In this document: piece after piece, positions 12,660 to 27,751 of the stretch
Layout: each line of letters starts with the position of its first letter
Position numbering within the stretch: the first letter of the stretch is position 1
Source: Halomicronema hongdechloris C2206
Lineage (GTDB): Bacteria; Cyanobacteriota; Cyanobacteriia; Phormidesmidales; Phormidesmidaceae
Reading direction: 5' to 3'
DNA length: 32,000 nucleotides
Assembly (NCBI RefSeq): GCF_002075285.3
Contig: NZ_CP021983.2
Span: forward strand, 480,001-512,000
Notes under the pieces: generated by a model
What the model was told of the DNA's origin: nothing
Database searches by the model: none
Seen by the model: the letters and a program-made list of their open reading frames with translations, nothing else
Translations under genes and position numbers: made by a program

Positions 12660-12710
12660 GCCTTCGCCGATGCTACAGCAGATACCTTATCTTGAATCTC
12701 CAGCATCAGG

Positions 12711-12869
12711 CTACTGATCGTCTCCTCTCCAAATACTCAGATCTTGATCGAGGTCAAAGGTCAGCTTACCCCGCACCAGGGCTTCGTTCTGGAAGTAAAA
12801 ACAGTTATCGGGTTCTAAACCGGCCTGCTCAGCCTGTTTTCGCCAGGTTGTCGCTCCATAGCTGATGTC
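12711..12869 (-). pseudogene. Uma2 (DUF820) family endonuclease fragment
   Basis: The minus-strand translation GLEPDNCFYFQNEALVRGKLTFDLDQD matches the conserved EPD.CFY core of Uma2 proteins. The fragment has no start and is truncated. Confidence 0.5.
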
Positions 12870-13673
12870 TCAATCATACGTCTCGTTTCCAGGGGTCGCT
12901 CCGAGTTGATAATTGGCCAGCAACTCTGCCATCCACTGCTCATTTTGCTTAGATAACGGCGGCACTGGCGGTTGCCCATAGTCAATCGCCAGATGATATC
13001 GCCCCTTCTCATAGACCCGATTCAGTAATGGCTGCAGAGCTAAAATCGGTTCTTTTTCTCCGGGTAGCAGTGGCACCGGAAACGATGGAATCGGCTGTTG
13101 CAGGCCGAATCTATAGAGGTCAGCCGTTGGTCGCCGGTCGGCCCGGGAAATCAGAATGTGATAATCGCTGGGGTGCTGGCCTGACATGGGCAGCGGCTGT
13201 CCCCCTCGCAGTAGGTCGATTTCTACCAGATGAGAGACACTGGCTAGCACCTGATTTCGCTTGCGCAAGTAGGCAATTCGCCCTTCCCCGGGCCGCTTGT
13301 TTTTAGGCGACAGCAGCTCGATTACTGCCACCACCATGCCTGTCGCCACCTCTCGAATTTCTAGGTAGCGTTCGGTGACCTCTGCCGCTAGAGGCACGGT
13401 GACAGGTTCAGGCTGCATTGGCGGCGGCAAAGTTGCTGCCTCTGTGGTGCCCGCTGCTGATCGCCCCGTGGCTACGGCTACATCGGGAATACCCACCAGT
13501 ATGCTGTCGTCTTCGCTGCTGAAATAAACCCGCTTCTCTACCTCAACCCGATACTTTTGGCTCAGGTGATCCACTAACTCATCGGCGATGGCCACAATCA
13601 ACCGACTGTGAACAGCCGACCACAGCTCTGGGGTCTCAAGATAGGGATCCATGCCGGGAAACGGCGATGCCAT
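12870..13673 (-). CDS. DUF4058 family protein
   Basis: It has the signature N-terminus MASPFPGMDPYLE. PDVAV and IELLSPKNK...VEIDLL blocks resemble PD-(D/E)xK motifs. Confidence 0.8.
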   Translation of the reverse strand: MASPFPGMDPYLETPELWSAVHSRLIVAIADELVDHLSQKYRVEVEKRVYFSSEDDSILVGIPDVAVATGRSAAGTTEAATLPPPMQPEPVTVPLAAEVTERYLEIREVATGMVVAVIELLSPKNKRPGEGRIAYLRKRNQVLASVSHLVEIDLLRGGQPLPMSGQHPSDYHILISRADRRPTADLYRFGLQQPIPSFPVPLLPGEKEPILALQPLLNRVYEKGRYHLAIDYGQPPVPPLSKQNEQWMAELLANYQLGATPGNETYD

Positions 13674-13701
13674 GACATATCTTCAGGCGAGGGGGCTGTT
13701 T

Positions 13702-15906
13702 TTATGGTATCGAAGTAACCCTCTCCTCCACCCTCAGGGTTGAGCGCAGTCGGCGGCATTCCGCTGCCGAAGGTAACTCCAAATCTGCCGCCAAGGCGAT
13801 GGCCCGGTCCAAGTAATCCGCCGCGGTTTCAGGGTCGCCCATGGCCTGGTATAGCATCCCCAGATGCCTATAGGTCAAGGCCTCAGGGGATCGTGCCTGC
13901 TGCTCCCGAGTGATCTCAAGGGCGGCGTGGAGAGTAGCCAGGGCTGCTTGGTGCTGCCCTAGCTTCATCAGGGTTTCCCCAAGGTTAGATAGGGTCAGAC
14001 CCTCTCCCCAGCGATCGCCGAGCTGCCGCGCCATCGCCAGGGCCTGATGATATAGCTCGACCGCCTGATGATGGTGGCCCAACTCGCTATGGGCATTGGC
14101 CAAATTCACCAGGGCCGCCTCTTCCCCCTGTTGTTGGCCGAGTCGACGGGCAATTGCCAAATCCTGCTCGTGGTAGGTGATGGCCCCAGCATAGTCATGC
14201 ATCTCATCGTAGACGTTGCCGATGTTGCCCAGGGCGGCTCCTTCCCCAGCGACATCCCCCACCTGTCTGACCAAGTCAAGGGTCTGAAAGTAGTAGCTTA
14301 AGGCCAAATCATTGTGGCCCAACTTCAGGTGGGCATGGCCCAGCCCTTCTAAGGCCCGTCCCTGGCCAGGCATATCGCCCAGGGCGGTGGCCAAATCCCA
14401 ATGCCGTTGGTGGTAATCGAGGGCTGCCTGAAAGTGCCCGAGTCGATAAGAGATGTTGCCCAAATAGCCGAGGGCATTGGCTTCTCCCTGACGATCCCCC
14501 AGCTGTTGGGCGATTGACATGGCCTGCTGGAAGCATTGCAGCGCTTGGGTGTTGTCGCCCAGGGCACCGTGAACATTGCCCAGGTTGCCGAGGGCCTGAC
14601 TTTCGTGATAACGATCGCCCATCTGCCGGACGATGGCCAACTGCCAATGCAAGGCCTCGAGGGCATCCTGATAGTTGCCCAGCCCATAGGCTACGACGCC
14701 TAAGTTGCCATAGGCAAGACTAATGCCTAGCTGATCGCCAATGGCCTGGGCGGTTGTCAGTTGTTGTCGATAGCAGTCAATGGCGTCAGGGTATTGGCCA
14801 GTAGCGCTCAACACATTGCCCAAGTTCCCCAAGGCATGCAGCATACTCTGCTGGTGGTCTAGGCGTTGGGCCATCGCCAGGTGTCTCTGGTGCAATTTGA
14901 GCGCCTGGTCATAGTGCCCGGTGGCAAAGCAAACATTACCCAGTCCTCCTAGGGCATTCCCTTCGCTGAGGGGATCGTGAATGTCCCGGGCGATTTGCCG
15001 CTGACGCTCGAAATACTGGGTTGCTAACTCATACTCTCCCAGGGTGTAGCAGGCACTGCCCAGGCCGCCTAGGGCACTACTCTCGCCGGAGCGATTGCCG
15101 ATGGTCTGGGCCAGGTGCAGGTGCCGGCGATGATAGTCTCTGGCCTGTTCATACTGGCCCAATGCCTGGCAACAACTGCCTAAATTGCCCAGGGCCGCCC
15201 CTTCCATCTCTACATCCTTTTCCTGGCGGGCAATGGCTAGGTGTTGATGATGGTAGTCGAGGGCCTGTAGGTAGTTACCCTGAGCCTCGTGGATATTGCC
15301 GAGACTGCCTAATGCAATGCCTTCGCCAATCCGCAATCCCACCTGTCGCGTAATAGTCAGCCAATCTTGGTAATGCTCAATGGCGGTTTGGTAATTCCCC
15401 AAGGCATAGTAAACATCGCCCAAGTGGCTCAGGACCATCCCCCGATTAACTGGGTCGCCGACTTCCTGAAAAATACGAAGGCTACGCTCCAGACATGCCT
15501 TGGCCTCTCTATAGTTGCCCTGGGCATAGTAGCTGGTTCCTAAAAACTGGAGAAACATGCCATTGCGCTTAGCATCGACATGGTCAATCAGGGCTGCATA
15601 GAGGCCCGTTTGCTCAGAGGTATAGCCCCATAGCTTCAGTTGGTAATGTAGGCGAGCCTTGGTAGGGGTATTCAATTCGGTGAAGATCAGGCTGGCGGCC
15701 CGTTGCCACTCGCCCATGTCGCAGAGGTGATAAAACGCCTCGAGATAGCCTTTGACCCGCTCTAGGTTGGTGGCATTTGCGGGGGGCTGATACTTGGTCA
15801 GCCAGTTGACGATGGCTTGATAATGGGTGCGGCGGTGGTGGGGGCGCACAGCGCCAATGCGGGCGGGGTCGATGCCGAGCTGATCTAGGGGAGCGGGAGG
15901 GAGCAT
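13702..15906 (-). CDS. Tetratricopeptide-repeat protein (about 14 TPR units)
   Basis: A ...ALGNLGNV..ALG.Y..A...HQ..L.IA... period of about 40 aa repeats across roughly 600 aa. The N-terminal 130 aa are non-TPR. Confidence 0.85.
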   Translation of the reverse strand: MLPPAPLDQLGIDPARIGAVRPHHRRTHYQAIVNWLTKYQPPANATNLERVKGYLEAFYHLCDMGEWQRAASLIFTELNTPTKARLHYQLKLWGYTSEQTGLYAALIDHVDAKRNGMFLQFLGTSYYAQGNYREAKACLERSLRIFQEVGDPVNRGMVLSHLGDVYYALGNYQTAIEHYQDWLTITRQVGLRIGEGIALGSLGNIHEAQGNYLQALDYHHQHLAIARQEKDVEMEGAALGNLGSCCQALGQYEQARDYHRRHLHLAQTIGNRSGESSALGGLGSACYTLGEYELATQYFERQRQIARDIHDPLSEGNALGGLGNVCFATGHYDQALKLHQRHLAMAQRLDHQQSMLHALGNLGNVLSATGQYPDAIDCYRQQLTTAQAIGDQLGISLAYGNLGVVAYGLGNYQDALEALHWQLAIVRQMGDRYHESQALGNLGNVHGALGDNTQALQCFQQAMSIAQQLGDRQGEANALGYLGNISYRLGHFQAALDYHQRHWDLATALGDMPGQGRALEGLGHAHLKLGHNDLALSYYFQTLDLVRQVGDVAGEGAALGNIGNVYDEMHDYAGAITYHEQDLAIARRLGQQQGEEAALVNLANAHSELGHHHQAVELYHQALAMARQLGDRWGEGLTLSNLGETLMKLGQHQAALATLHAALEITREQQARSPEALTYRHLGMLYQAMGDPETAADYLDRAIALAADLELPSAAECRRLRSTLRVEERVTSIP

Positions 15907-15936
15907 GGAGAACGAGAGAAAGGCGAAAGCAGCACC

Positions 15937-16719
15937 CTACTGTGTTGCCTTTGCCAGCCATTCTTTAGCCCAGGCGGCATTGGCATCGTCTAAGGGTGGT
16001 ACAGGGCTTTGGGAATAGTCGATAACTAAACCATAGCCCGAGCGATCGTAGATGCCATCCAGTAATCCTTTCAAATCCACCACTGGCAGTTCATCCTCTG
16101 GCTGCAGAGGCAGCTCAAAACAGGGAATGGGGTCTGGCAGATTAAACCCATACCATTTGGCCTGGGGACGTAGTTCTTGGGGGCTAACCAAAATGTGATA
16201 GGTCGAGGGTTCGACCTCCTGAGGTATGTCCAAAGAAAGCCACTGGCGCAGCAGGTCAATTTCTACAAAATTACAAGGGCTACTGAGCAACGTCGCCCGT
16301 TTCACTTCATACTTCGCTCGGCTCCGGCCTGGGCGCTTGTTGGTGGGCGACAGGACCTCTACCACAGTAATGACCTGACTTGTCGCAATTTCTCGAATTT
16401 CCAGGTAGCCTTGGCGAATGGTTTCAGGCAGCATTAGCGTCACCGTGACGGCATCGCCAGGATGCGGTGCTGTGGCTGCTGCGTTAGTCTTTTTGGGAAG
16501 CTGCCGTTGCCCTTGGGCCACTGCGACATCTGGCCTGCCGACTATAACAGAGTTTTGGCCATCAACCTGGTATACCCGCACTTCAATCAGCACTTGGTAT
16601 TTAGGCAGCAGCTTAGGTGCCAGGCCATCGGCGATCGCCGTCATTAGTCGATGGTGAATGTTCGGCCAGGCGCTAGGGTGCTCCAGGTAAGGGTCCATGC
16701 CCGGAAAAGGAGACGGCAT
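15937..16719 (-). CDS. DUF4058 family protein (paralog)
   Basis: MPSPFPGMDPYLE, PDVAV and VEVLSPTNK...VEIDLL are shared with the paralog at 12870-13673. Confidence 0.8.
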   Translation of the reverse strand: MPSPFPGMDPYLEHPSAWPNIHHRLMTAIADGLAPKLLPKYQVLIEVRVYQVDGQNSVIVGRPDVAVAQGQRQLPKKTNAAATAPHPGDAVTVTLMLPETIRQGYLEIREIATSQVITVVEVLSPTNKRPGRSRAKYEVKRATLLSSPCNFVEIDLLRQWLSLDIPQEVEPSTYHILVSPQELRPQAKWYGFNLPDPIPCFELPLQPEDELPVVDLKGLLDGIYDRSGYGLVIDYSQSPVPPLDDANAAWAKEWLAKATQ

Positions 16720-16753
16720 TGGAAATTTCCAAACAGGAAGTTGTCTTTAGTGT

Positions 16754-16788
16754 AAGGCAGAAGGATGAAGGATGAAGGATGAGGGGAG
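16754..16788. repeat. Heptamer microsatellite (AAGGMWG units)
   Basis: The sequence aaggcag aaggatg aaggatg aaggatg aggggag is the left arm of the inverted repeat flanking the 4HB gene. Confidence 0.85.
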
Positions 16789-17145
16789 TTAGGCGGGTTC
16801 GTTATTTTTAGCATTTTTGACCAGGGTGACGAAAATTGCGGTTAATTCGCCGGCTTCCTGCGACAGAGGGTTTAAGCGGCTGGGTTCAATGGTTTCGGAC
16901 TCGGCTAGCAGTTCTAGCCAGTAGTTGGTTTCTTCGAGTTCTTGTAGGCCGCCATTGAGCTTGCTGACAAATTCAGCGGTCGATCTGGCACGATGAGCTT
17001 CTCGGTAGTGAGCACCCACTGAGGTGCCGCTACGCAAGATTTGTTTGCCAAGAACCTGGGCCACGGTGGTGTTTGGCAGGGCGGAATACAGGCGGATGAT
17101 TCGTAGAGCAAAGGCTTTGGTCCGTTGCTTCAAATCACTGGGCAT
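16789..17145 (-). CDS. Four-helix-bundle protein (23S rRNA intervening-sequence protein family)
   Basis: TKAFALRIIRLY..LP......LGKQILRSGTSVGAHYREAHRARS..EF..KL...L.E..ET.YWLELL fits the family pattern. Confidence 0.85.
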   Translation of the reverse strand: MPSDLKQRTKAFALRIIRLYSALPNTTVAQVLGKQILRSGTSVGAHYREAHRARSTAEFVSKLNGGLQELEETNYWLELLAESETIEPSRLNPLSQEAGELTAIFVTLVKNAKNNEPA

Positions 17146-17290
17146 GAGTTTAGGTGATAGGGATCCCTATTAGAGTGCCCCTTTTAAAGGATGAAGAAGG
17201 CAGAAAAGCAGCAAATGTCTCGGGGGCACAAGTCGGGTCGGGTCAAGAGTCTGGCGCGGTGGAAGGCGGCAACCTAGGCGACCTTCAGAC

Positions 17291-17322
17291 CCCCCTTTCA
17301 TCCTTCATCCTTCATCATTCTG
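17291..17322. repeat. Heptamer microsatellite (CCTTCAT units), right arm of the inverted repeat
   Basis: The sequence is ccccctttcat ccttcat ccttcat cattctg. Its reverse complement matches 16758-16786 with one mismatch and a 1-2 nt indel. Confidence 0.85.
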
Positions 17323-17332
17323 ATTTTCTATC

Positions 17333-17352
17333 GTTTCCGTCCCCTTGCGGGG
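17333..17352 (-). repeat. Degenerate or partial CRISPR repeat (trailer end)
   Basis: GTTTCCGTCCCCTTGCGGGG equals the first 20 nt of the 35-nt repeat and then diverges. It lies 138 bp from the array and is bracketed by heptamer arrays in opposite orientation. Confidence 0.7.
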
Positions 17353-17356
17353 GGTA

Positions 17357-17391
17357 GGAAAGGCAGAAATCAGAAGGCAAAAGGCAGAACG
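17357..17391. repeat. Heptamer microsatellite (CAGAARG units)
   Basis: The sequence is ggaaagg cagaaat cagaagg caaaagg cagaacg. Confidence 0.8.
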
Positions 17392-17451
17392 GGTTACTGG
17401 CTGGTGGCTAGGGTCAGAGCTGTTCAAAATGCTGGGCAAATTTCCCCAGTC

Positions 17452-17486
17452 CCTTCATCCTTCATCCTTTCGCCTTCTGCCTTGCT
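17452..17486. repeat. Heptamer microsatellite (CCTTCAT/CCTTCTG units) abutting the array
   Basis: The sequence is ccttcat ccttcat cctttcg ccttctg ccttgct. It ends 4 nt before repeat 1. Confidence 0.85.
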
Positions 17487-17490
17487 TACG

Positions 17491-17734
17491 GTTTCCGTCC
17501 CCTTGCGGGGTAATGGATTTTGAACCGGCTGTCCGAAGGCATTTTCCATGGGTTCGGAAAGTTTCCGTCCCCTTGCGGGGTAATGGATTTTGAACATCAC
17601 TCAGACTCAGCTAGAACAGGCGCTGAAGGTTTCCGTCCCCTTGCGGGGTAATGGATTTTGAACAGTTGGTCAGTCTTCGGATGACGCTAGCGACCGAAGG
17701 TTTCCGTCCCCTTGCGGGGTAATGGATTTTGAAC
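17491..17734 (-). CRISPR. CRISPR array with 4 identical 35-nt repeats and 3 spacers (35, 33 and 36 nt)
   Basis: The plus-strand repeat GTTTCCGTCCCCTTGCGGGGTAATGGATTTTGAAC occurs at 17491, 17561, 17629 and 17700. The minus-strand form GTTCAAAATCCATTACCCCGCAAGGGGACGGAAAC ends in GAAAC and has a CCCC-GCAA-GGGG hairpin. The adaptation genes and leader lie on the high-coordinate side and the degenerate repeat on the low side, so transcription is on the minus strand. Confidence 0.93.
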
Positions 17735-17963
17735 CCCCTTGATCTGGAGCCCTTATGAGGCAAGGCTTTCAACACCCCAAATCTGAGGGGGTCTGTCCGA
17801 GGGGTGAGGAATTGAGAATTTCTGTCAACAAGCCCTCTGCCAACAAGGCTCAAATCCTTGTACGGAAAGGCATCTGAGGGGGTTGACGAAGTTATAAGGT
17901 TTTCAAGGTTCACCAGACCCCCTCAGATTAGCAACCCCAGACTAGTCCATCAAGCCTTGGAGG
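17735..17963 (-). promoter_or_regulatory. CRISPR leader region
   Basis: This 229-bp non-coding stretch lies between the last operon gene and the first repeat. It contains a 16-bp perfect inverted repeat. I could not pick a convincing promoter hexamer pair. Confidence 0.6.
17780..17929. repeat. 16-bp perfect inverted repeat pair inside the leader (MITE-like or long hairpin)
   Basis: AATCTGAGGGGGTCTG at 17780-17795 pairs with CAGACCCCCTCAGATT at 17914-17929. A third 12-nt direct copy, ATCTGAGGGGGT, lies at 17872-17883. Confidence 0.8.
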
Positions 17964-18752
17964 CTAGACTTTACAATTCTTTTGGCTAATGTAGGCCAAA
18001 ATCTCTCGCACGACTCCGCTCTTCCCTCGACAGTTCAACAGTAAGACATCCCCCGACAAGCACTCCACCTTCCGCAACTGCATGATGCTATCCGTTTGCT
18101 TATGCTTCATATACCCCGTAATCAACACAACCAGATCGCAGTCGTGAATTTTAGCTTTGATGTTGCTCCGCCCCAAACTGTGCTTGCTAAACGGTGGTAG
18201 CTCCACCCATTTGGCTAGACCATGCTGCCGGGTTAGCTCATCGATTACTCCTCGTCGGGTGGCATCATGGCCTCCTACCAGTGCTAGCTTGATGCCTGAC
18301 ACATCAATTGCTTGCAAATTAGCCTGGCTTTTCTGGGTCGATACATCTGTCTGATGATCTAGCGGTTGATCCTCGACTCGTGTCTGGGGACCAAACGGGA
18401 TCTCAGCCAAAGGCTCAGACTCAGCAGTAGGTTGCCATGCTTCCACTGCGGTCAGCAGCTGAAACAGTTCCTCTACTAGGTCTTCAAGTTCCCAAATCTC
18501 CAGCTGCAGATCATCCCGTTCGGCTTTCATGTCCTCATAGAGGGTTCTCAACCCCCGGTTTTCCAAACTGAGCTGATGATGTATGGCCTCCTGCTCCTGC
18601 CTTAGCACGTTACATTCAGCCTTCAGGGTCGACAACCTGCGCATCAACCGTCGCTTTTCCCGGCGGTCTGCACCTGAAATCCCCCTCATCCATAGCCAAG
18701 GTTGGCGATAGAGAGCCATGAGTAGCCGTCTGAATCCTCGCAAGTCGTGCAT
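17964..18752 (-). CDS. Coiled-coil protein with a C-terminal DUF2325-like domain
   Basis: The start MHDLRGF (ATG 18752) is 2 nt after the upstream stop. The N-terminal heptad-rich charged segment suggests a coiled coil. The C-terminal LALVGGHD...DCDLVVLITGYMKHKQTDSIMQLRK...LLLNCRGKSG fits my recollection of DUF2325. Confidence 0.6.
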   Translation of the reverse strand: MHDLRGFRRLLMALYRQPWLWMRGISGADRREKRRLMRRLSTLKAECNVLRQEQEAIHHQLSLENRGLRTLYEDMKAERDDLQLEIWELEDLVEELFQLLTAVEAWQPTAESEPLAEIPFGPQTRVEDQPLDHQTDVSTQKSQANLQAIDVSGIKLALVGGHDATRRGVIDELTRQHGLAKWVELPPFSKHSLGRSNIKAKIHDCDLVVLITGYMKHKQTDSIMQLRKVECLSGDVLLLNCRGKSGVVREILAYISQKNCKV

Positions 18753-18754
18753 GA

Positions 18755-19159
18755 TCACAACTCCTCGCCTAGGGGTTTCAGCCAAACAGAAGCATCTCCA
18801 ATCAGGCGGTCCAGGGCTGAAAAAATGAGTCGGTAGCGGCCAAATAGTGTTTGTCCTGCCTCGCCACCCAGATATCCACATGCCATGGCAATCTGAATCC
18901 AGGTTTGCATTTCAGCCGCTTCAGCCTGGGCATCGCTGAGCGTAGCTACGAATGCCCTTCGGTAACGGCGCTTGCCCCAGGCTGCGGCGATACTGGCACA
19001 GGCTGAGCGTGATGCCGTCAGCATTTGTCTGGTCAGGAGGTCCTTTTCTGCCTCTGGAAACCCTTGTGAGAGCTGATAAATTTCCACTGAGCTGTCGAAC
19101 GCCAACTGATACACCTGGAGTTCTTGATAGCTGTGAATAAAGTCCTGCATGAGTGTCAT
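18755..19159 (-). CDS. Four-helix-bundle protein (Avd / 23S rRNA IVS protein family)
   Basis: YQELQVYQLAF...VEIYQLSQGFPEAEKDLLTRQML.ASRS....IAAAWGKRRY fits the family pattern. It is a paralog of the 19194-19619 gene. Confidence 0.8.
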   Translation of the reverse strand: MTLMQDFIHSYQELQVYQLAFDSSVEIYQLSQGFPEAEKDLLTRQMLTASRSACASIAAAWGKRRYRRAFVATLSDAQAEAAEMQTWIQIAMACGYLGGEAGQTLFGRYRLIFSALDRLIGDASVWLKPLGEEL

Positions 19160-19193
19160 TCCTTTCGACGATCAAGGTCACATCAGCACCTGT

Positions 19194-19619
19194 TTAAGCT
19201 GTGGCAGGCAGGTCATTTGTACTGTCTTCAGAACGTCGCCTTTCCCCAACTAAAGCGCCTTCCATCAACTGATCGAGGCTGGAAAAAATGCGGCGATAGT
19301 GGTCGGACAGAGCTTGCCCTGCGTCTCCGTCCAGATATCCGACTGCAACGGCAGCTTCGATCCAGGTCTGCATTTCGGCTGCTTTTAACTGAGCTTCACT
19401 GAGCTGGGTGATTAGGGCTTTGCGATCGCGTCGTTTGCCCCAGGCCGCTGCAATATGAGCCCGTACTGCCCGTGAGGTTGCTAAAATCTGGCGAGTCAAA
19501 CAAGCACTGGTCTCTTCGGGAAAATGTTGGGCTAGGTCGTATATCTCGACCGAGCAGCGAAACGCTAGTTGATACACCTGCAGGTCTTGAAAGCTGTACA
19601 CAGAGAGCTTCATGGTCAT
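19194..19619 (-). CDS. Four-helix-bundle protein (Avd / 23S rRNA IVS protein family)
   Basis: FQDLQVYQLAF..SVEIYDLAQHFPEE...LTRQIL.TSRA....IAAAWGKRRD fits the family pattern. GGAGAA lies 7 nt upstream of the second ATG (19613), which may be the true start. Confidence 0.8.
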   Translation of the reverse strand: MTMKLSVYSFQDLQVYQLAFRCSVEIYDLAQHFPEETSACLTRQILATSRAVRAHIAAAWGKRRDRKALITQLSEAQLKAAEMQTWIEAAVAVGYLDGDAGQALSDHYRRIFSSLDQLMEGALVGERRRSEDSTNDLPATA

Positions 19620-19627
19620 TTCTCCGG

Positions 19628-19906
19628 TTAAACAATAAAGGCCACATCATCAACTTCCCGTTGGGGTTGCAGCCCTAAAACGAGCACTTTCTGGCGATAG
19701 CGGGGCGATAGGGGATAAAAGCGCACCTGATCTTCATTAGGCTTGATGTAGCGATTGAGTCGGCGCTGCAGCATGTCCCGCTGGTCGGGGGTCAGCACGC
19801 ACTCAAACACTGATTTCTGTACCCGCATGCCGTAGCCTTCTAGCAAGTGCGCTACTTTGTTACGTCGTCGATCCAGCACGATGTCGTAGCAGATGAGGTA
19901 GAACAT
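19628..19906 (-). CDS. cas2: CRISPR-associated endoribonuclease Cas2
   Basis: MFYLICYDIV.DRRRNKV...L.GYG.RVQKSVFEC is the classic Cas2 N-terminus. Its ATG overlaps the RT-cas1 stop as TAATG. Confidence 0.9.
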   Translation of the reverse strand: MFYLICYDIVLDRRRNKVAHLLEGYGMRVQKSVFECVLTPDQRDMLQRRLNRYIKPNEDQVRFYPLSPRYRQKVLVLGLQPQREVDDVAFIV

Positions 19907-21870
19907 TACCCCTCCCACTGCATAGGCCGATACACCGGCTGCTCACCCATCAGGCAAGCCACGTATTCCCACACCTGCAATTCCAGACAGCGACGGTAGC
20001 TGACCTTGTAACCGCTATGGGGATGGGTCACGCTCTGCTGTAGCTTCTCCTCCCAGTGCTTGAGAAACCGCTTCATGGCGTCAGGGTGAAGATAGACACC
20101 GCCTCGCGCATCGGGTGGAGTAAAGTCGTCTGGGCTAAAGATGTTGGAATTGATCAGATAGGCCACCAGAGAATCCACGGCAATGGCCCGAAACTCTTCC
20201 ACCAGATCGCATACCAGCGAGGGCCGATTTGCCTGCGGCTTATGCAGGTTGCCAAAGTGAGTGTGCAGACCTACCCCTTCCACCATGGCGTGCACATTTT
20301 GCGACAGCAGCGTATAGCCCAGGCTCAGCAGGCTGTTAACCGGGTCGGTGGGGGGGCGGGTGCGTTTTTCAAACTCAAATTGGCCTTTCAGCAGCGAGGC
20401 GTAGGCTTGAAAATATAGGTTGGCCCCCGTGCCTTCACGGCCCAGCATGGCTTCCACCGACTCGGCGCTGGGCACCGTTTGCATCAGTTCCGCTAGGGTT
20501 GCAATGGCCTGGGTGGCTGCCTCCGTCTTGCGGCGGCGATTCAGGCGCAGCAGCAGGATGCGGGAATTGTGTAATTTGCCGATAATGATGCTGGCGGCCT
20601 GGGTGCGCACAAAGTCTGGATCTTGGGCCTTGTAGACCTGCTGGGTGAGATACTCCAGCTTGGCCTGCCCCGTGGTTTGCAAGCGGCCAAAGTAACGGCC
20701 CTTGTTGGATAAATACAGCAGTGGAATCCGTCGTTGCAGAGCCAACCGCACCGCCCCATGGGAGACATTGCAACAGCCAAACAGCACCACATGGCTGATG
20801 CGGCTGGCGGGTACCGAGCAGCGCAACTCCTGGTTATGAAACACCTGAAATTGCTGATGCCTGACCCGCAAATAGGAGCCTTGATCGGTGATATATAAGG
20901 TGGTCATGCCGTCTCTCCAATAGTCGTCAGTTGATGTCGCTAACATTCGTCGCGGGGATTTGACGATGCTGCACAGCTGGGGTGGCCCATACCCCGGTTG
21001 GGGCGCTTTCTGCCTTCTGCCCTCAGCCTTCTGCCTTGCTGGTCCCTCTACGGTTCCGTTACGGAAGCGATGGCCGAGAAAGACAAACGCCTGGCCAGGG
21101 GGAATGATGGTGGTTTTTTCCGGATGAAAGCTGAGGGAGAGACCTTCAATCCAGTCCTGCATCAGGGCCAGGGAGCGGCTGGCCTCCAGGTAGCTCTGGC
21201 ACACGGCTACGCAGTCATCGCCGTAGCGCACCAGGGGAATATCGGCTTCCAGGCAGTGCCGGTCAAAATCGTTCAGGTAAAGATTGGCCAGGGCGCCCGA
21301 CAAGATGCTGCCTGGCAACACCCCTTGCCCTGGTTGGTAAAACTGCCCGCTCACGACAATGCCAGCCTTGAGTTGTTGCTCGATCCACTGCACCCAGGTT
21401 GCCGGTAGGCTCAATTGGTCGAGCTGATGCAGCAGTAGCGGCCAAGACAGCTGGTCGAAAAACTGCTGAATGTCAGCCTTGATCACCCAGGTCGGTTGGT
21501 AGCGGTAACGCTCCATCACCCGCTTAACTGCGGCATAGATGGAGAGACCGGGTCGATAGGCAAAGACGGCATCGCTGAAGGCGTTTTCCAGGCTGGGATA
21601 GATGCTCTGCAACAGATAGCGTTGCACGATGCGATCGCGAACAGTAGGAATACCGATCAGGCGGTGGCCGCCCTTCTGTTTGGCCAGGTAAAAGCCCTTG
21701 GCGGGGCGGGCAACATAGCGCTCTTGCCGCATCTGCCGATACAGTTGATGGATTTGCTCCCGGGCGATGCCAGTAAATAAATCCACCGTGATCCCGTCTA
21801 TTCCGGCGGCCCGGCTGCCCCGTTGCACCAGGTGCCAAGCCGTAGCCAGTTGTTCTACATACAGTTTCAT
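19906..21870 (-). CDS. cas1: Reverse transcriptase-Cas1 fusion protein
   Basis: The N-terminal group-II-intron-like RT carries AAGIDGITV, IGIPTVRDRIVQ and LVRYGDDCVAV (the xxDD catalytic motif). The C-terminal Cas1 domain runs from MTTLYITDQGSYLRV and contains GNLH...RPSLVCDLVEEFR. The ORF is open to 21903, but ATG 21870 has GGGGGA upstream. Confidence 0.9.
   Translation of the reverse strand: MKLYVEQLATAWHLVQRGSRAAGIDGITVDLFTGIAREQIHQLYRQMRQERYVARPAKGFYLAKQKGGHRLIGIPTVRDRIVQRYLLQSIYPSLENAFSDAVFAYRPGLSIYAAVKRVMERYRYQPTWVIKADIQQFFDQLSWPLLLHQLDQLSLPATWVQWIEQQLKAGIVVSGQFYQPGQGVLPGSILSGALANLYLNDFDRHCLEADIPLVRYGDDCVAVCQSYLEASRSLALMQDWIEGLSLSFHPEKTTIIPPGQAFVFLGHRFRNGTVEGPARQKAEGRRQKAPQPGYGPPQLCSIVKSPRRMLATSTDDYWRDGMTTLYITDQGSYLRVRHQQFQVFHNQELRCSVPASRISHVVLFGCCNVSHGAVRLALQRRIPLLYLSNKGRYFGRLQTTGQAKLEYLTQQVYKAQDPDFVRTQAASIIIGKLHNSRILLLRLNRRRKTEAATQAIATLAELMQTVPSAESVEAMLGREGTGANLYFQAYASLLKGQFEFEKRTRPPTDPVNSLLSLGYTLLSQNVHAMVEGVGLHTHFGNLHKPQANRPSLVCDLVEEFRAIAVDSLVAYLINSNIFSPDDFTPPDARGGVYLHPDAMKRFLKHWEEKLQQSVTHPHSGYKVSYRRCLELQVWEYVACLMGEQPVYRPMQWEG
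21006..21040. repeat. Heptamer microsatellite inside the RT-Cas1 linker coding sequence
   Basis: The sequence ctttctg ccttctg ccctcag ccttctg ccttgct encodes ARQKAEGRRQKA on the minus strand. Confidence 0.85.
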
Positions 21871-21965
21871 TGCGTTTCCCCCAGACGAAGAAGGCTGCAT
21901 CAAGGCCGACGCAGAAAATCCCTGTCCTTCCTTGATTCATGAGTGCATCGTCGCAAGGGGCCATA

Positions 21966-22011
21966 TGAGTTCAACCCCGAGTTGTGCCTGAGTTCAGGAC
22001 CGGGTTGTGTA
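21966..22011. promoter_or_regulatory. Tandem 23-nt direct repeat in the divergent RT-cas1 / STAND promoter region (candidate operator)
   Basis: TGAGTTCAaccCCGaGTTGTGcc is followed immediately by TGAGTTCAggaCCGgGTTGTGta. The two copies are identical at 17 of 23 positions. Confidence 0.45.
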
Positions 22012-22043
22012 AAGGCGGAAATCAGCTTGTCCTGAGCCTGTCG

Positions 22044-22064
22044 CAGGGAAGGCAGAAGGATGAA
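22044..22064. repeat. Heptamer microsatellite (GGCAGAA/GGATGAA)
   Basis: The sequence cagggaa ggcagaa ggatgaa is in inverted orientation relative to 22107-22141. Confidence 0.75.
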
Positions 22065-22106
22065 TTGGTTATTCTTGGAATAGAAGTTGCCCGCTCGCTG
22101 CGCGGC

Positions 22107-22141
22107 TTTTTCATCCTTCATCCTTCATCCTTTTACCTTTC
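22107..22141. repeat. Heptamer microsatellite (CCTTCAT) running up to the STAND gene start codon
   Basis: The sequence is ttttcat ccttcat ccttcat cctttta cctttcc, followed by ctcATG. Confidence 0.85.
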
Positions 22142-22145
22142 CCTC

Positions 22146-23555
22146 ATGCCTCGTTCCGTTCGTGTCCATCCCGACCATAGGCAGATGGTGGCTCTGGCGC
22201 TGGAGCGCAATGGCTTTCTGACTCAGGGGGATTTAGCGGCCCATCTGGAGATCGCCCTATCGACGGTGAGCAACTTCTTTCGCGGGATCAATGTCTCGGT
22301 GGCTAAGTTTGAGGAAATTTCAGCGGCCTTGGGCCTGGAGGCCAGGGAGCTGATTCAGGCCCAGACTGCTAGCCAACCTGCGAGAACCGACGCAGGGATG
22401 CCGATGACGTTTTATGCCTACGACGAGGGCTGGGTAGGGCGCCAGGAGGTGATTGCTGAGTTAGGTCCTCAGGTCCGGGGGAGTTGTCGCCTACTGATGA
22501 TTACGGGAATCGCTGGCGTGGGTAAGACCGCCCTGGCAGAACGGCTGTCTCTGGAGTTAGCAGGGTTCGGTGCTCCCCTGCGAGACCCCTTTGATGCCCA
22601 GGATCAGACCTTGGATTTTGGCAGCTTCGCGGCTCGGTTATTGGAAAAACTGGGCCAGGTGGTGACGCCATGCGATCGCACAGCCATCCCGCAACTGATG
22701 GCGCGTTTAGTGCAAGCCTTACAGCATCAGCCCAGGCTACTTCTGATCGATTCTCTGGAGGAACTGTTGCAAGGCAACGAGCAGGACGGCTGGAGCGAGT
22801 TTAAGGATGAGGTCTTTTTACAGTTCTTTCAGCGGGTGCTGACGGCGGAGGAGTTTCAGAGCCGGATTATTCTGACCTCTCAGGAATTGCCGACTCAGCT
22901 TTTGAGTCTAGGGACCCGGTATCAAAACTTTTGGACCACTCATTTACTCACGGGACTGTCCGCATCAGAACAACTGGCTCTATTCGAGAAAACCGGGCTG
23001 GATGTGCGCCCTGACGCCGCGGGCCGATCCTATCTAGTTCGCATGGGCCAGGCCTATGAGGGACACCCTCTAGCGCTGCGGGTAATCGCCGGGGAGATCG
23101 GCAGTCGACCCTTCTTTGGGGATGTGGTGGCCTATTGGAACCGGTATGGCCATGAGATCGAGGCGGTGGAAGTTGTCATTGCTGCAGCGGCGGCCGGTCA
23201 AGCCGTGGGAGCCGAGGACAAATGGCGCCTTGATCGCTTCACCCGCACCCTGCGCCGGAATGTGCGACAGCGTCTAGAGCAGACCTTCCAGCGCCTGCGA
23301 CAGGATGCCAAATTCGCCTACATTTTGCTCTGCGAAGCCTCGGTCTATCGCTGCGCCGTGCCTGAAGACTGGTGGCTGAGCCACCTAGACTATTGGGACT
23401 GTGATCAAGAGACAGGGGGGCTGGCACTAGATGCCTTGAGGGATCGCTTTTTAGTAGAAGAAGCCATTGAGTCGGGACAGTACACCCTCAGGCAACATAA
23501 TTTGATCCGCAGTGTATCTTTAGACCATCTGCAACGATTGGATGAGATATGGTGA
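22146..23555 (+). CDS. HTH domain + STAND/NB-ARC-like P-loop NTPase, with no repeat sensor domain
   Basis: The start is MPRSVRV at ATG 22146. The upstream part of the ORF runs through heptamer repeats. LTQGDLAAHLEIALSTVSNFFRG is an HTH, ITGIAGVGKTALAERL is Walker A and PRLLLIDSLEELL is Walker B. Confidence 0.75.
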   Translation: MPRSVRVHPDHRQMVALALERNGFLTQGDLAAHLEIALSTVSNFFRGINVSVAKFEEISAALGLEARELIQAQTASQPARTDAGMPMTFYAYDEGWVGRQEVIAELGPQVRGSCRLLMITGIAGVGKTALAERLSLELAGFGAPLRDPFDAQDQTLDFGSFAARLLEKLGQVVTPCDRTAIPQLMARLVQALQHQPRLLLIDSLEELLQGNEQDGWSEFKDEVFLQFFQRVLTAEEFQSRIILTSQELPTQLLSLGTRYQNFWTTHLLTGLSASEQLALFEKTGLDVRPDAAGRSYLVRMGQAYEGHPLALRVIAGEIGSRPFFGDVVAYWNRYGHEIEAVEVVIAAAAAGQAVGAEDKWRLDRFTRTLRRNVRQRLEQTFQRLRQDAKFAYILLCEASVYRCAVPEDWWLSHLDYWDCDQETGGLALDALRDRFLVEEAIESGQYTLRQHNLIRSVSLDHLQRLDEIW

Positions 23556-23574
23556 GATGTCCATGTTCCGCTAC

Positions 23575-23614
23575 TTTTCATCCTTCTGCCTTCTGCCTTT
23601 AACTCATCCTTCAT
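23575..23614. repeat. Heptamer microsatellite (CCTTCTG/CCTTCAT)
   Basis: The sequence is ttttcat ccttctg ccttctg cctttaa ctcat ccttcat. Confidence 0.8.
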
Positions 23615-23676
23615 CTTTTTTTGTCTTTTCTTCCTTGCGCTGTTTATCCTGATAGATATTGATTTTTGCTTCCTGA

Positions 23677-24226
23677 CTAATGCGGCGCAATCAGGCCATT
23701 ACCCTGCTCAAAGCTCGCCGATCTCAGCATGCGCCGGGCCAGCTTAGCTCAAGCTCACGGTATTCCCCTCCCAGGGGGCTGCCGCCAACTCGGCGTAGGT
23801 AGTGGCCGGAAGCACAGTCCGTACTCGTTGAATGGTCAGGGGTAAATCTTTTAGTACCAGCGTCTTAGGCAGTTGCTGCAGCCAGGTAGCCAGTCCTGCC
23901 ACTGTCCGCCGTGAGAACCCATGCACCTGCCAGGAGTATCGCTGCCCCCGTTGGATATGTAATGCCCGACTATGGGCGACGAATTCCCCACTCAACCCGG
24001 TGATGGCAAAGGGCTTCTCAGACTCATGGTCATGCAAATAGGCCGACAATTCTGGATCAAATTGCTGAATCTGCTGTAGAAACCAGGCATGTAAGCCAAT
24101 GGTGTATTGCGGATACAGGTCATAGTCGCGGTCTGCCGCCAGAGAAAATTGCACCCCGACGAGCTCGCTGGTCTGTGGCCACTGAGATGCTGCAATGGTG
24201 GCAGATTTCTGAGACGGGGGAGTCAT
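23677..24226 (-). pseudogene. cas6: cas6 remnant (frameshifted and 3'-truncated)
   Basis: The 160-aa ORF carries LHAWFLQQIQQFDPELSAYLHDHESEKPFAITGL, which I recognise from cyanobacterial Cas6 proteins. It stops at VSLS, where full-length proteins continue F.SPTSFR. A weak continuation (SASFEQGNGLIAP) lies in another frame and ends at 23677. The C-terminal G-rich loop region is absent. Confidence 0.55.
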
Positions 24227-24515
24227 GATGATTGCTACCAGTAGCTATAACATTGGCCAGGGAACTCTCCCTAAGCATATCTTTAATCCCCCAAAGGGGA
24301 TAACAATAATGGCTAACTGGCGTTAAAGGATGTGATCGTGAGCGAATTGAGGTGTTTGATTTTCAGAGAATCCATCGGCAGATCAATGCTGAATGTATCC
24401 GATACCTGCGGGGAGTGACACTGGTTGAGTTGCGTAATACCCAGGAGTTCCGCAGAGTCAGCGGGAACAGTCTGCCCACAAGTGCTCAAACGTTGTCGTA
24501 TTCTCAATATGAGAC

Positions 24516-25149
24516 TTATGGTCGGTTCCCTAAATAGTTTTCTGCACCACCGAGGCCCTGGGCCTTGATGTACGCTTCCTTCAACGTCCAGACATCAAAG
24601 AAGCGATGGCGCCAGGCTATCCCCGTCAGTCGCGCTAACTCTGCCAGTTCCACCGGAGCAAAGTTGGCCACTGCAATGGCCGCTAAATCTCCCGCCCGGA
24701 CCGGTTGCCCCCCATGCTCCACATCTATCCCCACCTCTGCCGCACGGGTAATCGCACAGGCCACCAGGCCCTCCGTATGGGACAAATTGAACCGCCGCGG
24801 CGGTGCGCCCTGCTCGACCTGAATTTCTGGTCGTCCGTAGGCATTGGTTGAGAACCGCCAGTCCTGGGGGGGCTGCTCCCCGTAGCGCGACAGGCAGCTC
24901 CGTAGTAGGGCATGGGCCACCAAATATTCATGGCGATGCTGAGGAAAGCGACAGCGTTCGTAGCGCCATCGCTCCTGAGCATCTAGCCACGAAACATTGG
25001 CATTGCTCCGTCGCCGCCATCCAGACATGTACCTCATCGGCGTCGAGAGCCTGCTCGGGCTTTGCCTCTTCTGACTGGGAAACGGACTCGACTAGATGCT
25101 GGGGCAATTGCGAGTCAACCAAGGGGGGTAACGTTGAGTCTCTAGGCAC
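24516..25149 (-). pseudogene. Sfp-type 4'-phosphopantetheinyl transferase, frameshifted and C-terminally truncated
   Basis: The N-terminal DEVHVWMA lies in frame 24928-25149. The core FNLSHTEGLVACAI, VGIDVE and FFDVWTLKEAYIKAQGLG lies in frame 24516-25037. The sequence ends just after the W.KEA motif. Confidence 0.6.
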
Positions 25150-25266
25150 AGTAGAGCCGGCGCCGAGGGAACTGCTCTAAATCCTACCGCAAATGGGAAT
25201 GAGTCTCACGGCAACAGGCCCTTTCCCCCTTGGGTTTGGATGGATGAGTTCCCCGTCATTTATTGC

Positions 25267-25734
25267 TCACGCCTTATCCCTGGCGGCCCGATATGCCAGC
25301 AACTGCTTCAGGGTCCTCTCAGGCTCATATTCCCGTGAAGCATGGTGGATATGGGGCATAAAGGCAACGGGAGTATGCCGCTGAGTCGCTGGGGGCCAAT
25401 GGCGGCTCACCAGCAACCCACCATCGGCGATGCCTTGCTGCTTAGATAGCCCTAACGCCTGGGCCGAGAGCGGTCCCCGCACACAGTAGATGCGCCAGGT
25501 CGCAGGCAGGCGCTCGAGCGGACGCTCGTAGCCGACACCGGTGCTGAAAATGATGGCTTCGGGAGTGGTCAGTCGCTGCGGCAAGAGGTGGTTGATCAGC
25601 GTGCCAATGCCCACAAATGTCACCCCCTCATCGGCCTCAAAGGCGTTGGGCAGCTGCCGCGGCCATAGCCACAGATTCAGCCGGTCGCCAAAGTTTTCGG
25701 CCCGGTCGCGGCGCACATAGTGAAACAGCTTCAC
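25267..25734 (-). pseudogene. ExoV-like polysaccharide pyruvyl transferase, N-terminal half only
   Basis: MKLFHYVRRDRAENFGDRLNLWLWPRQLP...FVGIGTLINHLLP...VRGPLSAQALGL resembles the ExoV family. At 155 aa it is about half the expected length, and its tail is unrelated. Confidence 0.5.
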
Positions 25735-25746
25735 GACAGCCTCCAG

Positions 25747-26772
25747 CTAAAACACACGGGATCTCAGTTTGGACTCCAGCCGCCCCCATCTGGCCGCCAG
25801 TTGCTGCCGCTGAATGAGCCACAGGCGGCCCCAGTCGGACTGGGTGCGCCAGCGGGCATAGGCTGGAAACGCCACCTCCTGAAAAAATGCCAGCCAGCGA
25901 TGTGCGATCGCATCTGGCCTGACGGTCTGGGAGCGTCTGTGGGCATTGTGGGTCATGGCCCGGCGCAGCGTTGTCTCCTGCTGTAGTCGCAGCAGCGCCT
26001 TGAGACAATCCTCAGGGCGTTTTACCTCAATGTAGTCCAGTGGGCTCTGCCGTTCGGCCCGGTAGGCCGACTCCAGCCCGGCAATTACCGGCACCCCAGC
26101 CAGCCAGCCATTATAGAGCTTCGTGGCAGGCTTGTGACCAAAGCAGCGGGTGCGCCACTGCGGCCGCCATCCCCAGCTGCGTACGGCCACCACCACATCC
26201 ACATCACTGTAGTCGTGCCAGCGCTGGTGTATTCCCGTCGATTGATTCCAGCGGTTGCGGTTCAGCCGCGGCTGCCACTGCAATCCCAGCCTCGCTAGGG
26301 CCGCGGTCCAGTCGTCCCCTAGGCCCGCCAGATTATCCTGATGGCCAAAAAACGCCACCGTATCAAAGCGCTCCCTCCGGCTGGGGTCGCGGGGTATCAG
26401 CCCCGGCTGGGGCCAGTGGGGCAAAAAAAGGCGGCGGTAGCGCCCATCGGCCTGGAGCGGGTTCTGCACTACATGAATCTGAGCCTGGGGATAGGGCGGC
26501 AGGTCCCCCTGCAGACACACCAGCAGCCGCTCAGGATGGGGCCGAAGCGGCTCAGCATGGGCTCTGAGGCTGTTGCGATGCACCAAGACAATGCCCGCCG
26601 AGGGCAGGGTATCAACCAGCTCACAGGCTAATCGCTCTCGCAACCAGAGATAGGTCTGAATTGTCCAAGCGTACATGCCGACGACATAGCCTGGCCAGGC
26701 TTCGCCCGCCTGCTGCGGCAGGGCATCCGGCCAAAACCGCTGCGGTAGATAAAAATAGACCGATGGCGTCAT
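25747..26772 (-). CDS. Hypothetical protein with a glycosyltransferase-like C-terminal region
   Basis: This is an intact 341-aa ORF. KLYNGWLAGVPVIAG is reminiscent of the GT-B C-terminal domain. I have no firm family call. Confidence 0.5.
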   Translation of the reverse strand: MTPSVYFYLPQRFWPDALPQQAGEAWPGYVVGMYAWTIQTYLWLRERLACELVDTLPSAGIVLVHRNSLRAHAEPLRPHPERLLVCLQGDLPPYPQAQIHVVQNPLQADGRYRRLFLPHWPQPGLIPRDPSRRERFDTVAFFGHQDNLAGLGDDWTAALARLGLQWQPRLNRNRWNQSTGIHQRWHDYSDVDVVVAVRSWGWRPQWRTRCFGHKPATKLYNGWLAGVPVIAGLESAYRAERQSPLDYIEVKRPEDCLKALLRLQQETTLRRAMTHNAHRRSQTVRPDAIAHRWLAFFQEVAFPAYARWRTQSDWGRLWLIQRQQLAARWGRLESKLRSRVF

Positions 26773-26797
26773 TAGGCGGTAGAGGGTGAGGGGCTAT

Positions 26798-27748: not shown

Positions 27749-27751
27749 GGC

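Follow-up and report, generated by a model that had tools for sequence, protein, structure and literature searches.

The UAS-8 locus of Halomicronema hongdechloris: an RT-Cas1/Cas2 operon with acidic four-helix-bundle genes coupled to a basic partner

Results

A compact RT-Cas1 operon catalogued as UAS-8

The 32,000-nt window analysed here (the whole stretch from position 480,001 to 512,000 of contig NZ_CP021983.2, assembly GCF_002075285.3, of the cyanobacterium Halomicronema hongdechloris C2206) carries a minus-strand operon in which a gene for a fusion of reverse transcriptase (RT) and Cas1 is followed by cas2, two four-helix-bundle (4HB) genes, a gene for a coiled-coil DUF2325 protein and a CRISPR array. 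In window coordinates, the features are:

19906..21870, minus strand: RT-Cas1 fusion, 654 aa from the ATG at 21870, with RVT_1 and Cas_Cas1 domains
19628..19906, minus strand: cas2, 92 aa (PF09827, 5.4e-26; TIGR01573, 1e-19)
19194..19619, minus strand: 4HB-a (uas8B2), fast-evolving and acidic (PF05635, 8.7e-18; TIGR02436, 2e-15; isoelectric point (pI) 5.9)
18755..19159, minus strand: 4HB-b (uas8B1), acidic (PF05635, 1.4e-21; pI 5.1)
17964..18752, minus strand: coiled-coil DUF2325 gene (uas8A), 262 aa, 2 nt after the 4HB-b stop
17735..17963, minus strand: leader, 229 nt
17491..17734, minus strand: CRISPR array of four identical 35-nt repeats (GTTCAAAATCCATTACCCCGCAAGGGGACGGAAAC) and three spacers of 36, 33 and 35 nt
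17333..17490, minus strand: array trailer, with (GGATGAA)n at 17452-17467 right after the last repeat and a 20-nt partial repeat at 17333-17352

The initial annotation of this DNA had described a single, tightly packed minus-strand unit, and all the junctions that it gave can be read in the sequence: the TAA of RT-Cas1 overlaps the ATG of cas2 (TAATG at 19904-19908), gaps of 8 nt and 34 nt separate cas2 from 4HB-a and 4HB-a from 4HB-b, respectively, and TGAtcATG at 18750-18757 joins 4HB-b to the DUF2325 gene. All five open reading frames (ORFs) are intact, and on the evidence of the sequence the unit from RT-Cas1 to the DUF2325 gene is a tightly packed operon. The RT-Cas1 gene at its head is present as annotated, but the start previously placed at a TTG (21903, 665 aa) is less likely than the ATG at 21870, because the resulting 654-aa protein fits the database entry and all homologues. 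Within the 665-aa ORF, RVT_1 matches residues 75-279 (1.8e-29) and Cas_Cas1 residues 336-619 (6.7e-85), the latter over positions 1-283 of a 283-position model; TIGR00287 (cas1) matches at 6.1e-91, TIGR04416 matches the N-terminal part at 4.6e-66, and a YGDD motif is present. One polypeptide therefore combines the RT fingers and palm, including the YxDD motif, with a full Cas1.

The initial annotation also held that this gene combination had not been described as a CRISPR adaptation module. That is wrong, because the exact locus and three of its proteins are deposited as UAS-8 in the supplement of Altae-Tran et al. (2023; Science 382:eadi1910, PMC10910872). The entry is classed as Acquisition, reads '23S rRNA IVP + DUF2325 + RT sometimes', carries a CRISPR-association score of 18/22.0 and a locus drawing, and has as its representative a 790-nt minus-strand gene, GCF_002075285.3 NZ_CP021983 497963-498752(-). 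Comparison with the deposited sequences showed that uas8A is the DUF2325 protein of the window, uas8B1 is 4HB-b (from MQDFIH onwards) and uas8B2 is 4HB-a (from MKLSV onwards), letter for letter, so that all three deposited proteins agree in sequence, as does the gene content in the order RT-Cas1, cas2, 4HB, 4HB, DUF2325, array. The DUF2325 protein, RT-Cas1 and 4HB-b are, moreover, each 100% identical to database entries of H. hongdechloris C2206 (XM38_004920, XM38_004930). The object is thus already known as UAS-8, with no difference in the locus itself, and credit for the association belongs to the 2023 catalogue, in the main text of which we found no discussion of UAS-8 mechanism or function. 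What the present analysis adds to the catalogue entry is the restriction of the gene set to one clade, the pairing of acidic with basic proteins, an alternative partner protein (ZnR-ParE-like) and the conserved STAND and tetratricopeptide repeat (TPR) neighbours.

The accessory genes are near-obligatory in one RT-Cas1 sub-clade

Conservation was assessed in 80 RT-Cas1 loci (one genome per species; individual loci are cited by L numbers), all of them cyanobacterial and 54-85% identical to the RT-Cas1 of the window. Loci were annotated with hidden Markov models (HMMs) built from the first loci found, the clade boundary was set at 64% RT-Cas1 identity, and the counts below refer to informative loci:

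Adjacent cas2: 22/23 in the sub-clade at or above 64%, 1/38 in the sister clade below 64%
At least one same-strand 4HB gene: 22/23 in the sub-clade, 0/38 in the sister clade
Divergent STAND gene: 17/22 in the sub-clade, 0/44 in the sister clade

The sub-clade that includes the window consists of Leptolyngbya-, Nodosilinea-, Phormidesmis-, Thainema- and Pseudanabaena-like cyanobacteria, whereas the sister clade (54-61% identical) comprises Nostocales, Microcoleus and Coleofasciculus and shows a solo RT-Cas1 with a separate Cas1-Cas2 pair. The linkage of 4HB genes to RT-Cas1 (22/23 against 0/38) bears out the idea that 4HB and DUF2325 are partners of RT-Cas1 and not random cassettes, although these counts are not independent, since the split between the clades may trace to one ancestral event.

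These arrangements can be set against published classes. Known cyanobacterial RT-Cas1 modules, which make up branch 5 in Silas et al. (2017; PMC5513706) and the two RT-CRISPR clades (3 and 5) that Toro et al. (2017; PMC5541045) saw in cyanobacteria only, resemble the window in having an RT-Cas1 fusion with a group-II-intron-like RT beside a type III-style array. The clade 3 loci of Toro et al. have an extra stand-alone cas1, which matches the sister clade but not the sub-clade of the window, where cas2 lies within the operon together with 4HB and DUF2325 (or ParE-like) genes.

The full order (divergent STAND gene, RT-Cas1, Cas2, 4HB, 4HB, DUF2325, array, TPR-like protein of ~720 aa) recurs in L001, L003, L005 and L009, with DUF2325 homologues that are 73%, 64%, 61% and 40% identical to that of the window, and the same gene order is found in independent genomes and metagenomes. 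Comparison of the window with its orthologues gave the following ratios of non-synonymous to synonymous substitution (dN/dS):

RT-Cas1: 0.07-0.10
Cas2: 0.02-0.08
4HB-a: 0.13-0.21
4HB-b: 0.08-0.12
DUF2325: 0.21-0.22

All of these genes are under purifying selection, by which the accessory genes too are maintained.

An acidic 4HB is coupled to one of two basic partners

The DUF2325 protein of the window matches PF10087 at 4.5e-7 and 30.4 bits, just under the gathering cut-off of 33.6 bits; many of its close homologues carry a precomputed PF10087 call, and the label in the catalogue is likewise DUF2325. In an AlphaFold2 (AF2) model (pLDDT 83.5), a disordered linker joins a long coiled coil at residues 28-106 to a small, basic, four-stranded, Rossmann-like C-terminal domain with a pI of 9.6-10.3. 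The motif VGGH162xxT165RRG, which comes after the first strand, is conserved, as are Y214MxH217xxT220 and the residues C205, K244 and R249. A search of PDB sequences with the DUF2325 profile returned coiled-coil noise only, and no PADLOC model matched the 4HB or DUF2325 proteins. The slot behind the 4HB can also be filled by short DUF2325-only proteins of 115-116 aa that have no coiled coil, as in L036 (12708-13058, on a Pseudanabaena plasmid) and L092 (6426-6773). In L092 an IS4-type transposase splits cas2 from the 4HB-DUF2325 pair, and the pair stays together.

Sub-clade loci that have no DUF2325 gene (L016, L017, L018, L033, L034, L035 and L038; also L094) encode, after the last 4HB, a different protein of 140-180 aa, of zinc-ribbon ParE/RelE-like type, which we refer to as ZnR-ParE-like. 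It combines a zinc-binding motif (PF24730) with a ParE-like toxin domain (PF24732, 1e-21 to 1e-26), has a pI of 10.6-11.5, and displays conserved R, H, E and Y residues and the invariant motifs RYR and HExYN. Where coordinates were read, its gene overlaps the last 4HB gene by a few nucleotides. The loci with this protein are:

L016, L017, L018, L033 (for example 12693-13241), L034, L035 (12728-13171), L038, L094 and L096-L111: ZnR-ParE-like gene

We found no such protein under 'ParE' in the supplement to the 2023 catalogue (PMC10910872). Among 32 sub-clade species loci, 25 have a same-strand 4HB gene, and wherever there is room for another gene behind the last 4HB (23 loci), that gene encodes either DUF2325 (16) or the ZnR-ParE-like protein (7), with overlaps or gaps of 1-5 nt between the last 4HB and the partner gene across the 23 loci. 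In a metagenome scan with an alignment of the ZnR-ParE-like proteins, all 14 full-length ZnR-ParE-like homologues with upstream sequence sit directly behind a 4HB gene and Cas2, and none is free-standing. The pair can also accompany a Cas1 that has no RT: in L041 (13518-15730, minus strand) and L111 (4107-6432), an operon of RT-less Cas1, Cas2, an HBb-type 4HB (the group to which 4HB-b belongs) and the ZnR-ParE-like protein converges on the array, across which lies a solo RT-Cas1, with Card1 and a Cas10 fragment next door in L041. This arrangement is probably what the 'RT sometimes' of the catalogue refers to. The gene arrangements of the sub-clade show a conserved rule: behind (RT-)Cas1 and cas2 there always come one or two acidic 4HBs and then a single, very basic partner in translational coupling with the last 4HB, with the conserved leader and a type III-style array directly after it.

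Such a layout of an acidic upstream and a very basic downstream protein, encoded as a bicistron with overlapping stop and start, recalls the type II toxin-antitoxin (TA) systems ParDE and RelBE, and it raises the alternative that the 4HB and its partner are a TA-like addiction or abortive-infection pair, which would stabilise a mobile adaptation module or add a suicide response and have no direct part in spacer capture. The ParE/RelE-type toxin domain (PF24732) of the downstream protein in 7 of the 23 loci speaks for this alternative, as do the occurrence of TA modules inside cas loci (Zhang and Ye, 2014; PMC3936711) and the view that RT-Cas1 adaptation modules move horizontally (PMC5513706). 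However, ordinary TA families have free-standing members, whereas the ZnR-ParE-like pair was never found outside (RT-)Cas1-Cas2 operons; the DUF2325 partner in the window matches no known toxin fold, and no 4HB gene lies upstream where DUF2325 homologues occur alone; and the upstream protein is a 4HB in place of a ParD/RelB-type antitoxin, with no DNA-binding domain typical of type II antitoxins detected. We therefore consider a TA-like pair unlikely.

The operon 4HBs share a fold with Avd but differ from it in charge and context

Both operon 4HBs belong to the PF05635/TIGR02436 superfamily, as does a third protein, 4HB-c, encoded just past the array. Scores against PF05635 (cut-off 33.8 bits) were 64.9 bits for 4HB-a, 77.1 for 4HB-b and 70.1 for 4HB-c, and those against TIGR02436 (cut-off 24) were 56.9, 65.8 and 89.9 bits, respectively. 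Neighbour-joining places the operon 4HBs in two groups, HBa and HBb, and the cassette-type 4HB-c outside both. Charge sets them apart as well: the orthologues of the operon 4HBs mostly have a pI of 4.5-6.4 (a few HBb members lie at 8.6-8.9), compared with 7.8-9.5 for the generic, cassette-type 4HBs within these loci. Generic PF05635/TIGR02436 proteins ('23S rRNA intervening sequence' proteins, with 4HB-c as a typical member) are what 4HB-a and 4HB-b match best in sequence and structure. Generic members in these loci are basic, often solitary and found on either strand, whereas 4HB-a and 4HB-b are acidic, hold a fixed position and have a partner.

The initial annotation had proposed that the 4HBs could be Avd-like cofactors of the RT domain in the acquisition of RNA-derived spacers; in such a model they would bind the RT domain as pentameric barrels and allow or shape the synthesis of cDNA. 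Avd is a pentameric, 'highly positively charged' barrel that binds the RNA of diversity-generating retroelements (DGRs), and the Bordetella phage enzyme bRT is inactive without it (PMC6182149); PF05635 is, moreover, the commonest Pfam family beside DGR RTs (PMC10053308). The structural part of the proposal stood. The AF2 monomer model of 4HB-b (pLDDT 89.5) has four helices in the fold of Avd, and although its closest PDB structures are the uncharacterised family members Xcc0516 (2GSC; TM score 0.86-0.87, 29% identity) and BT_0352 (2RLD), Bordetella phage bAvd (4DWL) follows at rank 12 with a TM score of 0.85, a root-mean-square deviation of 2.0 and 13% identity (4DWL_D). The nearest solved relatives, 2GSC and 2RLD, are five-chain entries, and a 4HB encoded near-obligatorily beside an RT within the sub-clade is a further likeness.

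The remainder of the proposal fared less well. Avd accompanies a stand-alone RT with a template repeat and a variable repeat (TR/VR), whereas the RT of the window is fused to Cas1 and no TR/VR-like repeat pair was found within window positions 12000-26000; on these grounds, a reading of the locus as a DGR was rejected. Instead of the strong positive charge of Avd, 4HB-a and 4HB-b have pI values of 5.9 and 5.1. The bAvd model (PF22296) gave 18.8 bits with 4HB-b, against a cut-off of 40 bits, and no match with 4HB-a, and profile searches of PDB sequences with both 4HB groups found 2RLD and 2GSC but did not reach 4DWL at E<=1. The genetic context argues in the same direction, as the sister clade does without a 4HB, the 4HB shares an operon with an RT-less Cas1 in L041 and L111, and its constant coupling is to the basic gene behind it and not to the RT. 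Finally, the RT domains of the 4HB-bearing and 4HB-free clades differ by only four discriminating residues and a small linker indel, with no domain-level difference, so that nothing points to an RT-4HB interface. An Avd-cofactor mechanism for the operon 4HBs is thus weakly supported, and we judge it improbable.

A small array without effectors

The 229-bp leader and the four repeats of the initial annotation were confirmed. About 190 nt of the leader nearest the first repeat are conserved across seven loci, and the repeats end in ...ACGGAAAC. Arrays of the same repeat family, with 17-39 copies, occupy the same position in L001, L003, L009, L014, L021, L023, L026 and L055, and the (GGATGAA)n motif also directly follows the last repeat in L003, L012, L014 and L015. 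Searches of viral contigs for the 24-nt cores of the three spacers gave no exact match. Scanning the window for Rfam families and tRNAs produced no hit, and a promoter/terminator scan stayed at background level, the only 'terminators' in the array being repeat hairpins.

The reported absence of an effector from the 32 kb likewise held, in that no ORF of at least 100 aa matched Cas10, Csm or Cmr in Pfam, NCBIfam or PADLOC. Nor is an intact cas6 present, and the window therefore does not contain a type III locus with cas10, csm/cmr and cas6. What remains of cas6 is a stump beyond the STAND gene:

23744..24226, minus strand: truncated cas6 remnant (CRISPR_Cas6_N, 1.7e-6; PADLOC Cas6, 7.6e-9, positions 8-99 of a 223-position model)

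The stump (160 aa) corresponds to only the N-terminal ~139 aa of Cas6, which aligns at 45% identity with residues 15-153 of the 382-aa L005 protein, and no C-terminal part lies between it and the end of the STAND gene at 23555. With three spacers, a cas6 stump and no effector in the 32 kb, any interference must depend on genes located elsewhere in the genome. Effector-less loci of this kind have been described before: Silas et al. (2017; PMC5513706) reported that effectors are missing from about half of RT-cas loci, which probably act in trans. Among related loci with the same repeat family, RAMP and mCpol genes lie nearby in L001, and Cas10 and Card1 in L041.

Neighbouring genes and 4HB cassettes

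Besides the cas6 remnant, three genes around the operon are additions to the initial annotation:

22146..23555, plus strand: STAND/AAA NTPase gene with an XRE-type helix-turn-helix (HTH), divergent from RT-Cas1 (HTH_3, AAA_22 and NACHT-type matches)
16789..17145, minus strand: 4HB-c, basic (pI 8.1), just past the array (TIGR02436, 1.2e-25)
13702..15906, minus strand: TPR protein, 734 aa (TPR_12, 6e-93)

The STAND gene has a dN/dS of 0.06-0.07. An HMM of the ~720-aa proteins from L001, L003, L005 and L009 gives the TPR protein a score of 1171 bits, and the family of this protein is conserved beyond the array or beside the STAND gene in related loci, the two genes being adjacent in L012, L015 and L033. 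The HTH-STAND and TPR proteins may form a regulator or sensor pair for the adaptation operon.

4HB-c is under purifying selection (dN/dS 0.055) and is flanked by inverted (GGATGAA)n copies at 16756-16785 (plus) and 17295-17317 (minus). It is probably a separate cassette and not a member of the operon, because orthologues lie at the same place, after the array, in L003 and L026. The heptamer motif itself occurs eight times in the window, compared with 0.03 expected, and only around the module; a further copy lies in the RT-Cas1/STAND intergenic region at 22108-22130 (minus), and there is a weaker occurrence at 23575-23614. A 47-nt inverted repeat pair (16736-16782 and 22111-22157, 79% complementary) brackets the ~5.4 kb from 4HB-c to RT-Cas1, and could be the mark of a mobile unit or a chance match of heptamer-rich sequence.

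Generic basic 4HB genes are also found, on the opposite strand, between RT-Cas1 and cas2 (L011:12009-12458, L016:4065-4448, L030:3446-3832, L103:3995-4378) and between cas1 and cas2 of Nostoc loci (L063:14636-14983, L073:15595-15951, L074:16048-16404). 4HB cassettes seem to have landed repeatedly at the junction of cas1 and cas2.

Hitch-hiking is plausible for 4HB-c and for these wedged, opposite-strand genes, and it could be extended to the operon itself by supposing that all 4HB genes are selfish cassettes in the gaps of cas operons and that DUF2325 is a bystander, in which case their association would carry no functional meaning. Apart from the wedged genes and the inverted heptamer repeats around 4HB-c, such a view could draw on the 18 23S_rRNA_IVP genes that Zhang and Ye (2014; PMC3936711) had found within type I, type II and type III cas loci, and on a close HBb-like protein (P0348) encoded alone between ABC-transporter genes. 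Yet 4HB-a and 4HB-b keep their strand, order and coupling across genera while DUF2325 diverges to 40% identity, fall into clades distinct from 4HB-c and are always joined to one of two dedicated partners. This synteny and the purifying selection are hard to reconcile with selfish behaviour, which we regard as highly improbable for 4HB-a and 4HB-b.

The outer parts of the window hold further genes. Paralogous DUF4058 genes lie on either side of the TPR gene (12870-13673 and 15937-16719) and are 72% identical to each other over a stretch of 85 nt; in L003, 4HB-c is likewise followed by a DUF4058 gene. A HerA-type ATPase gene (27752-29425) lies in a same-strand run with an RsmB/F-type methyltransferase gene (26798-27748) and two unannotated genes of 341 aa (25747-26772) and 155 aa (25267-25734); this run (25267-29425) may be a HerA-associated defence system. 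For a 431-aa ORF (11364-12659), the match to a DNA methylase model (N6_N4_Mtase) is confined to the C-terminal end of the model, positions 166-213; the ORF may encode a degenerate or atypical methyltransferase.

Discussion

The explanation that we favour for the UAS-8 gene set, with a probability of roughly one half, is that the acidic 4HBs and their basic partner form an accessory complex dedicated to (RT-)Cas1-Cas2 and serve adaptation. The charges of the two components are complementary (pI 4.5-6.4 for the 4HBs, against 9.6-10.3 for the DUF2325 C-terminal domain and 10.6-11.5 for the ZnR-ParE-like protein), and the acidic 4HB or 4HBs would bind the basic partner, which is itself a probable nucleic-acid-binding protein. 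The 4HB would act as an adaptor or brake of this partner and may tether it to Cas2 or RT-Cas1. The resulting complex would help to capture, cut or present RNA or DNA substrates for integration, or would gate integration, with the HTH-STAND/TPR pair as the likely regulator or sensor of the operon. Interference would be left to type III effectors and Cas6 encoded elsewhere, since the locus itself has only a cas6 stump and no effector genes.

Several points weigh against this explanation. The interaction, the RNA binding and the effect on acquisition on which it depends are all predictions. No solved structure resembles the DUF2325 domain specifically: Foldseek with its model returned weak matches to generic Rossmann-like structures (CENP-M, TagA, Argonaute MID, PTS IIB, TIR and receiver domains) with a best E of 4e-3, from which we deduce no function. 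Solo DUF2325 homologues occur in housekeeping contexts without a 4HB, and the domain is therefore not intrinsically CRISPR-specific; the contexts of these solo homologues showed no recurrent neighbour that hints at function. The split between the clades may reflect a single ancestral gain, and the existence of a sister clade without the accessory genes means that the RT-Cas1 family in general does not need them. Lastly, the copy in the window may be little used, given its tiny array of three spacers and its broken cas6.

A more specific version of the accessory-complex explanation is that the UAS-8 proteins are the first dedicated accessory factors for RNA-derived spacer acquisition, in which a 4HB-tethered subunit that binds or cuts nucleic acid (DUF2325 or, in sister loci, a zinc-ribbon RelE/ParE-like RNase) selects, trims or delivers RNA prespacers to RT-Cas1/Cas2, and in which the 4HB might, in addition, make a contact with the RT like that of Avd in DGRs. 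This version is conceivable, though we lean against it.

We know of no accessory factor for RNA-derived spacer acquisition by RT-Cas1. The interest of the locus lies in the function of UAS-8 and in the interchange of DUF2325 with a ParE-like protein. The replacement of DUF2325 by a RelE/ParE-like domain narrows the options to a nucleic-acid-handling subunit held by an acidic 4HB, or to an embedded TA-like pair. In one RT-Cas1 lineage the UAS-8 gene set is near-obligatory as well as conserved and under selection, which makes it a concrete candidate accessory factor for RT-Cas1 acquisition, and the question to which it speaks is how RNA prespacers are chosen and processed.

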